In this document: one piece after another, positions 1,376-3,681 of the stretch
How the letters are laid out: each line of letters starts with the position of its first letter
Numbering within the stretch: the stretch's first letter is position 1
IMG/VR virus record: IMGVR_UViG_2563366819_000004
Source of the DNA: a virus
Lineage: Duplodnaviria; Heunggongvirae; Uroviricota; Caudoviricetes
Strand: one strand, 5' to 3'
Length of the DNA: 12,785 nucleotides
Position numbers and translations under genes: made by a program
Notes under the pieces: model-generated
What the model was told of the DNA's origin: nothing
The model's input: the letters and a program-made list of their open reading frames with translations, nothing else
The model's database searches: none

Positions 1376-1657
1376 TTAGTCCTTGCGTAACTCGCTAATT
1401 CTTCTGTAAGTCTCTGGTGCTTTGTTTCCGTGTATCTTCATTTCAGACTTCAACAGAGCAACGAGGGAATCCCATTCGTTGAGGATGCCTTTGAATGCCG
1501 GAACGCGCTTTGCAACCTTGTCGAATGAATCTCTGATTTCTGGAATCTGCTCAACAAGTGCAACGCATCGTCGGAAATCGGCTGCGTCATGTGGAGCGCC
1601 GAAGTGATGACCATAGATATTCTTTTTCAGTCCACATGCGATTGAGGCAAGAGTTGC
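1376..1657 (-). pseudogene. 3' portion of a small leftward accessory gene split by the IS100-like insertion
   Basis: The minus-strand ORF has no ATG; it opens with TTG immediately inside the IS boundary. Removing the IS and one copy of the target duplication joins it in frame to the fragment at 3614..3681, giving a 114-aa protein MSDLAMKVLKWQSTGDVGISSATLASIACGLKKNIYGHHFGAP...RRISELRKD. Product not recognised. Confidence 0.6.
1653..1657. repeat. Target-site duplication GTTGC (left copy) of the IS100-like insertion
   Basis: GTTGC immediately precedes the IS left terminus TGT at 1658 and recurs at 3614..3618 right after the right terminus ACA. A 5-bp duplication fits the IS21 family. Confidence 0.65.
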
Positions 1658-1685
1658 TGTTACCAACGGTGCAAAACTGATCCAC
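1658..1685. repeat. IS100-like left terminal inverted repeat
   Basis: TGTTACCAACGGTGCAAAACTGATCCAC matches the reverse complement of 3586..3613 (TGTCAACAACGGGTAAAAAGTGATCCAC) at 22 of 28 positions. Confidence 0.55.
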
Positions 1686-1743
1686 CCCAGCGGTTGAAAA
1701 TTGATCCAGGGGTTAATCTGCTCCTCTGAATACAGGGGAGCTT

Positions 1744-2766
1744 ATGATCACTTTTGAGATTCGTATGGAAATTAAAGTCCTGCACAAGCGGGGAATGAGC
1801 ATCCGGGCCATCGCCAGGGAACTGGGTATTTCGCGCAATACTGTCCGCAGCCACCTGAAAGCCAAATCTGAAAAGCCGCAGTATTCACCACGCCCGGCAT
1901 CATCATCACTGCTCGATGAATACCGTGATTACATCTCTAAGCGGATCAGCGATGCACATCCCTACAAAATCCCGGCGACCGTTATTGCCAGGGAAATCAT
2001 GGAGCTGGGCTATCGTGGAGGGCTGACTATCCTGAGAGAGTTCATCCGTTCGCAGACCCTCCCTGCACAGGCTGAACCAGTCGTTCGCTTCGAAACCGAG
2101 CCCGGACGGCAGATGCAGGTTGACTGGGGGACCATGCGAAACGGCAAGTCCCCTTTGCACGTGTTCGTTGCTGTTCTGGGGTACAGCAGAATGCTTTACC
2201 TCGAGTTCACCGACAACATGCGCTACGACACGCTGGAAGCCTGTCACCGCAATGCGTTCAGCTTCTTCGGTGGCGTACCGCGGGAAGTCCTGTACGACAA
2301 TATGAAAACGGTGGTGCTCCAGCGTGATGCTTACCAGACCGGGCAGCACCGGTTCCATCCTTCCCTGTGGCAGTTCGGTAAAGAGATGGGCTTCTCTCCC
2401 CGCCTGTGCCGTCCCTTCAGGGCGCAGACTAAAGGCAAGGTGGAGCGGATGGTGCAGTACACCCGAAACAGGTTCTATATCCCGTTAATGACGCGCCTGC
2501 GTCCGATGGGGATCACCGTCGATGTTGAAACCGCAAATCGTTACGGCCTGCGCTGGTTGCACGATGTGGCCAATCAACGTAAGCATGAAACTATCCAGAC
2601 CCGCCCATGCGATCGCTGGGTGGAGGAACAGCAATCCATGCTGGCGCTGCCACCGGAGAAAAAACAGTATGACGTGCAGGTCGATGAAAGCCTGGTGACC
2701 TTCGACAGGCAGCCGTTGCATCATCCGCTCTCCATCTATGACACGTTCTGCAGAGGAGCCGCATGA
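1744..2766 (+). CDS. istA: IS21-family transposase IstA (340 aa)
   Basis: N-terminal helix-turn-helix region ([23 protein letters not shown]) followed by a DDE-type catalytic region. Size and layout match IS100 orfA. Confidence 0.9.
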
Positions 2767-3545
2767 TGGTCGAACTGCAACATCAACGGCTGATGGTGCT
2801 TGCCGAACGGCTGCAACTGGACAGTCTTATCGGCGCAGCACCGGCGCTGTCGCAACAGGCAGTGGAGCAGGAATGGAGCTACATGGACTTCCTGGAGCAC
2901 CTGTTACATGAGGAGAAACTGGCCCGGCATCAGCGTAAACAGGCGATGTACACGCGGATGGCAGCCTTCCCGGCGGTGAAGACGTTCGAGGAGTACGACT
3001 TCACCTTCGCCACCGGTGCTCCTCAGAAGCAAATCCAGTCGCTGCGATCTCTGAGCTTCATCGAGCGTAACGAAAACATCGTACTGCTGGGGCCATCGGG
3101 TGTGGGGAAAACGCATCTGGCGATAGCGATGGGATACGAAGCGGTCCGGGCGGGTATCAAGGTTCGCTTCACAACAGCAGCGGACCTGCTGCTACAGCTA
3201 TCCACTTCGCAGCGTCAGGGGCGTTACAAAACGACCCTCAATCGCGGTGTCATGGCCCCAAAACTGCTCATCATCGACGAAATAGGCTATCTGCTGTTCA
3301 GTCAGGAGGAAGCCAAGCTGTTCTTCCAGGTCATCGCAAAACGTTACGAAAAGAGCGCGATGATCCTGACCTCTAACCTGCCGTTCGGGCAGTGGGACCA
3401 GACGTTCGCCGGGGATGCAGCCCTGACATCGGCGATGCTGGACCGGATCTTACATCACTCACACGTAGTCCAGATAAAAGGAGAGAGCTATCGACTGAAG
3501 CAGAAACGAAAGGCCGGGGTTATAGCGGAAGCTAATCCTGAGTAA
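2763..3545 (+). CDS. istB: IS21-family helper ATPase IstB (260 aa)
   Basis: Walker A motif GPSGVGKTH and Walker B-like LLIIDEIGY. Start overlaps the istA stop (ATGA). Confidence 0.9.
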
Positions 3546-3585
3546 ACAAGGTGGATCAATATTAAACCGTTGGTGGTGACGGTTA

Positions 3586-3613
3586 GTGGATCACTTTTTA
3601 CCCGTTGTTGACA
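3586..3613. repeat. IS100-like right terminal inverted repeat
   Basis: Reverse complement matches the left terminus at 22 of 28 positions. A second inward copy of the motif, ACCAACGG followed by TGATCCAC, lies at about 3551..3577. Confidence 0.55.
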
Positions 3614-3681
3614 GTTGCGCTACTGATGCCGACATCGCCAGTCGATTGCCATTTCAAAACCTTCATAGCCAAATCTGACAT
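3614..3681 (-). pseudogene. 5' portion of the same IS-split accessory gene
   Basis: Minus-strand ATG at 3681..3679 preceded by GGAG with about 8 nt spacing. Translation MSDLAMKVLKWQSTGDVGISSAT then runs into the IS right end and stops after 3 IS-encoded codons. Confidence 0.55.

Follow-up and report, generated by a model that had tools for sequence, protein, structure and literature searches.

A PHROG 1229 family early gene split by an ISSen3-type insertion next to HK022-type xis-int in a prophage remnant

The closest described relatives of the gene studied here are gp32 of phage HK022 (HK022_32), mEp043_029 of phage mEp043 and their orthologue in phage mEp213, all of them intact, in viable phages, upstream of xis and in the orientation of the leftward early operon. 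The sole annotation note carried by the HK022 copy is 'N15 early protein homolog'. We analyzed a 12,785-nucleotide (nt) stretch of DNA from a virus of the Caudoviricetes (IMG/VR record IMGVR_UViG_2563366819_000004), referred to below as the window, in which an orthologue with the same position and orientation, and with 98-100% protein identity to these three, is split by an insertion sequence (IS) and lies in a prophage remnant.

Two better known phages offer partial parallels. Ea8.5 of phage lambda, a small non-essential gene of the pL operon that stands just ahead of xis, is a positional analogue; no sequence relation to it was detected, lambda was not among the matches listed (75 of 275 records), and the Ea8.5 product is presumably a zinc-containing protein with a different fold. 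The second parallel is the 'semi-essential' early region of phage Mu, since in Mu-like prophages members of the family stand among the small early accessory genes. Mu itself, however, has no detectable homologue; none of its early proteins proved homologous, all giving E>0.3 against the family profile.

The split gene and the element within it

Very probably, an IS transposed into codon 22 of a 114-amino acid (aa) early gene of the HK022 gp32/mEp043_029 family and inactivated it, in what is now a remnant prophage. The gene lies on the minus strand just upstream of xis-int, and its reading frame is broken at that codon by 1,961 bp. The parts are arranged as follows:

1376..1657, minus strand: 3' fragment of the split gene (codons 22-114 and the stop), colinear with intact alleles and ending in the left duplication copy
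1653..1657: target-site duplication GTTGC, left copy, read from the sequence
1658..3613, plus strand: IS21-family insertion sequence of ISSen3 type, 1,956 bp, starting TGT and ending ACA (comparison with ISSen3, inverted repeats)
1658..1708: left terminal inverted repeat (1658-1685) and second subterminal repeat (1687-1708), from a repeat search
1744..2766, plus strand: istA transposase, 340 aa, intact (NF033546 IS21 family transposase, E 6.7e-92)
2763..3545, plus strand: istB helper ATPase, 260 aa, intact (PRK09183, E 4e-138; NF038214 IstB, E 4.9e-89)
3551..3613: right subterminal repeat (3551-3575) and right terminal inverted repeat (3586-3613), from a repeat search
3614..3618: target-site duplication GTTGC, right copy, read from the sequence
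3614..3681, minus strand: 5' fragment of the split gene (ATG at 3681, codons 1-22)
3689..3692, minus strand: Shine-Dalgarno sequence GGAG, 7 nt upstream of the ATG, read directly

Removal in silico of positions 1658-3618, that is, the IS and one copy of GTTGC, gave a 345-nt open reading frame (ORF) of 114 aa on the minus strand, running from 3681 to 3614 joined to 1652 to 1376. Alignment of the restored ORF with the intact mEp043 and HK022 genes needed no gaps and showed differences at 4 and 9 of the 345 nt, respectively, and the sequence across the junction was identical to that of the intact alleles, which hold a single GCAAC. At the protein level it was 100% identical to the genes of mEp043, mEp213 and a Shiga toxin 2 (Stx2) phage, and 97-99% identical to those of HK022 (98%, gp32), phage 434 and many Stx phages; the exact restored protein was present on at least 1,000 public contigs.

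The original prediction had been of a simple insertion with intact ends and a 5-bp GTTGC duplication, excision of which would give back a 114-aa ORF with its own ribosome-binding site. The boundaries, the repeats, the single copy in the intact alleles and the GGAG upstream of the ATG all agree with this. The uninterrupted alleles that it proposed to seek in related phages were found in number, directly upstream of xis-int, and the gap-free alignment to them shows that the gene has intact homologues and that its two halves belong together. A 5-bp match on its own would arise by chance about once in 1,024 cases, but the idea that the restored ORF is a coincidence between unrelated flanks has a negligible probability and is untenable, because excision exactly restores a known gene, with the junction and the mEp043 identity described above.

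The window copy is thus a pseudogene of the PHROG 1229 family. The insertion duplicated GTTGC and cut the first 22 codons, together with the ribosome-binding site, off from the remainder; what is left in frame is without helix 1 and without three conserved residues, W11, G18 and S20 (see below), hence the inactivation of the gene. We found no evidence contradicting this account of insertion, duplication and restoration.

The element itself had been labelled 'IS100-like', a description that holds for the family (IS21) and fails for the element. ISSen3 copies annotated on plasmids and chromosomes showed 95.9-96.8% nt identity to it over all 1,956 bp, the full-length matches starting and stopping precisely at 1658 and 3613, whereas matches annotated as IS100 or IS100kyp reached only about 84% (joined matches, partly including flank), too low for near-identity and marking these as more distant relatives. 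The full-length match with exact boundaries, set against the lower identity to IS100, leads us to class the element, from its sequence, as an ISSen3 isoform of the IS21 family. It shares with ISSen3 the 1,956-bp length class, the TGT...ACA ends, the subterminal repeats, the 5-bp duplication and an istA/istB overlap, here at 2763-2766 with the istB start lying over the istA stop codon; it differs from the catalogued copies by about 3-4% nt divergence. The other hallmarks of membership were also found: istA precedes istB, and the terminal inverted repeats are imperfect (1657-1685 against 3586-3614, 29 nt, 79% complementary, with TGT/ACA tips) and accompanied by subterminal sites. Indeed, each end carries two repeat copies (1663-1684 and 1687-1708 on the left; 3551-3575 and 3586-3610 on the right), as is the case in IS21-family elements, whose target duplications are typically 4-8 bp.

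The insertion has also created a chimeric frame at the left end of the IS, which RefSeq annotates:

1376..1717, minus strand: chimeric ORF, 113 aa, 17 codons from the IS left end followed by codons 23-114 (RefSeq, ATT start)

It is very improbable that this ORF, driven by the IS, encodes a shortened protein that still functions. The frame extends without a stop for 17 codons into the IS end and is annotated by the Prokaryotic Genome Annotation Pipeline, its product retains a score of 104 bits with the family profile, and a version with an M start is recorded on 72 public contigs. However, the ORF begins at ATT, the part replaced covers helix 1 and the beginning of helix 2, with the loss of W11, G18 and S20, and a consensus scan for an outward promoter from the IS found none. 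The 72 contigs are explained by clonal inheritance, the recurrence of the chimeric protein pointing to one insertion event passed down a lineage. We therefore regard the chimeric ORF as an annotation by-product.

A dead prophage remnant at torS

The surroundings of the split gene are those of a prophage that has lost most of its genome:

1..1074, minus strand: integrase of HK022 type, 357 aa (96% identical to HK022 Int over 357 aa; weak tyrosine-recombinase family matches)
1052..1270, minus strand: excisionase of HK022 type, 72 aa (100% identical to HK022 Xis)
1352..1370, minus strand: terminator-like hairpin between the split gene and xis (consensus scan)
3701..3752, minus strand: two terminator-like hairpins upstream of the split gene (consensus scan)
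3754..3891, minus strand: C-terminal remnant (about 46 codons) of an ASCH-domain gene, cut off at the large deletion junction (RefSeq annotation of the 19KM1831 locus)
3888..4937, plus strand: P22-type major capsid gene without its N-terminus, on the far side of the deletion junction (RefSeq equivalent locus; reading frame seen)

The position next to int-xis, as originally predicted, is evident from the two HK022-type genes at the left. The equivalent locus in E. coli 19KM1831 (NZ_CP151026) is 99.7-100% identical and lies beside torS, with the integrase gene as the neighbour of torS. Intact prophages are colinear with the window only as far as about 3891. Between the ASCH-domain gene and the middle of the coat gene, the early-left, immunity, replication, lysis and packaging genes have been deleted along with most head genes and the early promoters. 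A second deletion, of 2.7 kb near position 5627 or so relative to 19KM1831 (16054-18768 of that locus, L003), runs from the end of a gp4-like gene into a DUF2824/gp14-like gene. The gene for a gp16-like lytic transglycosylase or ejection protein is split into two plus-strand ORFs (7700-8311 and 8533-9696) by a frameshift common to the window and 19KM1831, where RefSeq annotates it as frameshifted. The host element is, then, a dead prophage remnant at torS combining an HK022-type int-xis with P22-type late genes.

The insertion is accordingly one ordinary step in the decay of a prophage that is itself a remnant, and RefSeq and public genomes already contain this insertion allele, with annotation. 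No complete E. coli genome with the remnant and without the IS was found that would give the order of the insertion and the large deletion. The window and 19KM1831 have the IS21-type insertion in common and have decayed differently since; an IS4 lies in int of 19KM1831 and is missing from the window. The original prediction had also placed the gene in an early-left hotspot for accessory genes. Genes of this type do lie upstream of xis-int in intact phages, but in this deletion remnant, which lacks the early promoters, the hotspot is gone.

Some smaller observations concern the immediate flanks. The terminator-like sites of the region are no more numerous than in shuffled sequence and are only suggestive; a Mannheimia phage homologue of the gene is likewise annotated with terminators on either side. 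A 60-aa homologue of HK022 gp33, found just upstream of the gene in HK022 and mEp043, is missing from the window. Many public proteins are fusions of part of the split gene with Kil, Erf, Ea22 or dATP/dGTP pyrophosphohydrolase (P0015, P0017, P0028, P0036, P0051, P0052 and P0063). The abundance of such fusions suggests that the gene may be a frequent deletion end-point in decaying enterobacterial prophages.

The PHROG 1229 family: conservation, predicted fold and genomic contexts

The restored protein matched PHROG 1229, a family of unknown function, over residues 1-114 (E 7.1e-52) and scored 131.8 bits against a profile that we built from 51 diverse members. A profile search of 1.84 billion representatives put the size of the family at 2,806 cluster representatives at E<=1e-3; its named members are all called 'hypothetical' or 'prophage protein'. 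Eight residues are invariant in the 51 diverse members (W11, S20, P43, D45, D48, R51, C52 and W83) and five more are nearly so (G18, S21, G30, L55 and P60). The resulting signature, W...S...P-x-D-x-x-D-x-x-R-C...W, with S flanked by the nearly invariant G18 and S21, is complete in the restored sequence, the IS parting W11 and S20 from the other invariant residues. An AlphaFold2 (AF2) model of the restored protein had a predicted local distance difference test score (pLDDT) of 93 and seven helices; judging from the model, the intact protein would be a compact, mildly basic seven-helix bundle.

The protein had been called unrecognised, and the profile and structure searches that were then proposed leave that description standing: beyond PHROG 1229 they yielded no characterised relative or fold. 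The restored protein had no match in Pfam, NCBIfam or PADLOC (none at E<=1 in PADLOC-DB), and a Pfam scan of the 51 diverse members returned only noise. The same was true of PDB sequence-profile searches with two alignments (E>=0.058). A fold search of the PDB with the AF2 model matched no solved fold, and a search of BFVD recovered uncharacterised homologues only. Literature searches by locus tag, accession, PHROG identifier and peptide string found nothing on the gene, nor did it appear in the supplements of the paper on a phage accessory-gene screen.

Longer homologues have unrelated extensions. Several have N-terminal CxxC...CxxC extensions resembling zinc ribbons (P0093, P0161 and P0192 include examples), one consists of a tandem duplication of the domain (P0067, 333 aa), and one joins a CCA-adding enzyme, with PolyA_pol, RNA-binding and HD domains, to the family domain at its C-terminus (P0169, 558 aa; L175 37-1713). 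This last fusion is known from a single 1.9-kb contig and so could be an artefact of assembly or gene calling. The fused extensions other than the CCA-adding enzyme matched no Pfam or PHROG family.

Members of the family are hosted by lambdoid, P22-like and Mu-like phages, actinophages and Pseudomonas megaplasmids, and the gene copies sit in early or accessory regions. A contig scan for close relatives found only 4. The gene lies directly upstream of xis or int in HK022, mEp043, the P22-like phage SPN9CC and a Mannheimia phage (33% identity), the integrase of mEp043 being of SfX type and unrelated to that of HK022. The neighbours of uninterrupted alleles, which the original prediction had suggested inspecting, were surveyed at 121 non-redundant IMG/VR loci with 130 immediate neighbours. 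This revealed no recurrent neighbour family and no fixed partner; the mix includes methylases, exonucleases, RecT, RdgC, RusA, YqaJ, Ea22, ORF6N and others. An integrase lies downstream, on the same strand and within about 2 kb, at 18 of the 121 loci and upstream at none, and the contig ends less than 3 kb downstream of the gene at 33 loci, versus 5 with an end that close upstream. About 15 of the 121 are Mu-like prophages without int or xis, in which the gene stands between Gp11_C/DUF3164 and GemA/Mor genes.

Distant homologues (26-32% identity) occur on 109 records of Pseudomonas megaplasmids, which are IncP-2-like. On pTTS12 of P. putida S12 (L176 5995-6351) the homologue is placed between a divergent integrase/helix-turn-helix pair and two orphan DNA methyltransferases; on other plasmids, homologues lie amid runs of hypothetical genes.

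What the intact protein may do

Our tentative preference is to see the intact protein as a stand-alone factor, made early, that binds a conserved host or defence component, and that is neither part of the int/xis machinery nor a lysogenic-conversion gene. It would be produced early in lytic growth or during the establishment of a mobile element and would act alone, contacting its host or defence target through a conserved polar surface. This preference stems from the finding of the family in the early, mosaic and dispensable parts of unrelated mobile elements, from the lack of a fixed partner and of an enzyme-like fold, and from its position, in some cases, beside orphan methylases. Several observations weigh against it. 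No defence or anti-defence model of PADLOC-DB matched at E<=1, no paper on the gene or its family was found, and no solved fold resembles the model. The family is also broad and has invariant polar residues (S, D, D, R and C), a pattern that one would sooner expect of a conserved biochemical activity or ligand site than of an inhibitor that evolves fast.

That pattern is the starting point of the main rival, rather unlikely in our estimate, in which the protein would be a small enzyme or a nucleotide- or nucleic acid-binding accessory of phage DNA or RNA metabolism (replication, recombination or repair) with no part in countering host defences. The invariance of S20, D45, D48, R51 and C52 across very distant members and the breadth of the family are consistent with such a role, as is the frequency of DNA-metabolism genes among the neighbours, where thymidylate synthase and dNTP pyrophosphohydrolase join RecT, RdgC, RusA, YqaJ, the exonucleases and the methylases. 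The single CCA-adding enzyme fusion, the N-terminal CxxC...CxxC of several members and the mildly basic character of the window protein (counted from the sequence) point in the same direction.

It is improbable that the gene is a working part of the site-specific recombination module, for example an excision regulator or cofactor. Four divergent phages, whose integrases belong to at least two unrelated types, have it as the next gene upstream of xis or int; this, together with the strictly downstream integrases and the excess of contig ends on that side in the survey, would fit such a part. However, co-occurrence with an integrase or excisionase is not obligate: the gene is also found in Mu-like transposable prophages without int/xis and on megaplasmids, and some 100 of the loci have no integrase nearby. 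The adjacency to xis-int follows from its place as the final gene of the leftward early operon. We rejected the cofactor reading on account of the Mu-like and plasmid contexts.

A lysogenic-conversion or superinfection-exclusion gene, or a lipoprotein, is highly improbable. The int-proximal region is a known place for conversion and exclusion genes, and one Stx-phage record (AP012530) labels the orthologue 'lipoprotein'; yet the gene runs in the direction of the early-left operon, which is repressed, has no promoter-like site upstream, and belongs to a family that is also found in the early region of Mu-like phages. The lipoprotein label was rejected: by inspection rather than with a dedicated predictor, the N-terminus is hydrophilic and lacks a hydrophobic signal sequence, no lipobox surrounds Cys29, which relatives do not conserve (they have L or V there), and the model is that of a soluble helical bundle.

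To return to the preferred reading of an early factor that binds a host or defence target, its extension to the whole family is more doubtful: PHROG 1229 may possibly represent a new and widespread 'establishment' factor, which would neutralise a conserved host function or immune system through the invariant S/PxDxxDxxRC surface.

Nothing in the window is new in kind: a common IS, a pseudogene, a decaying prophage and an allele already in RefSeq; hundreds of phage records carry the intact gene under a hypothetical annotation. The interest lies in the gene's family, which is among the larger phage protein families for which no Pfam model, solved structure or literature was found. The fold is predicted with confidence and seems to be new, and the family has a sharply defined conserved motif. 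Since intact alleles exist in cultivable phages (mEp043, mEp213, HK022 and phage 434), the gene would make an inexpensive, well-defined subject for genetics and biochemistry.

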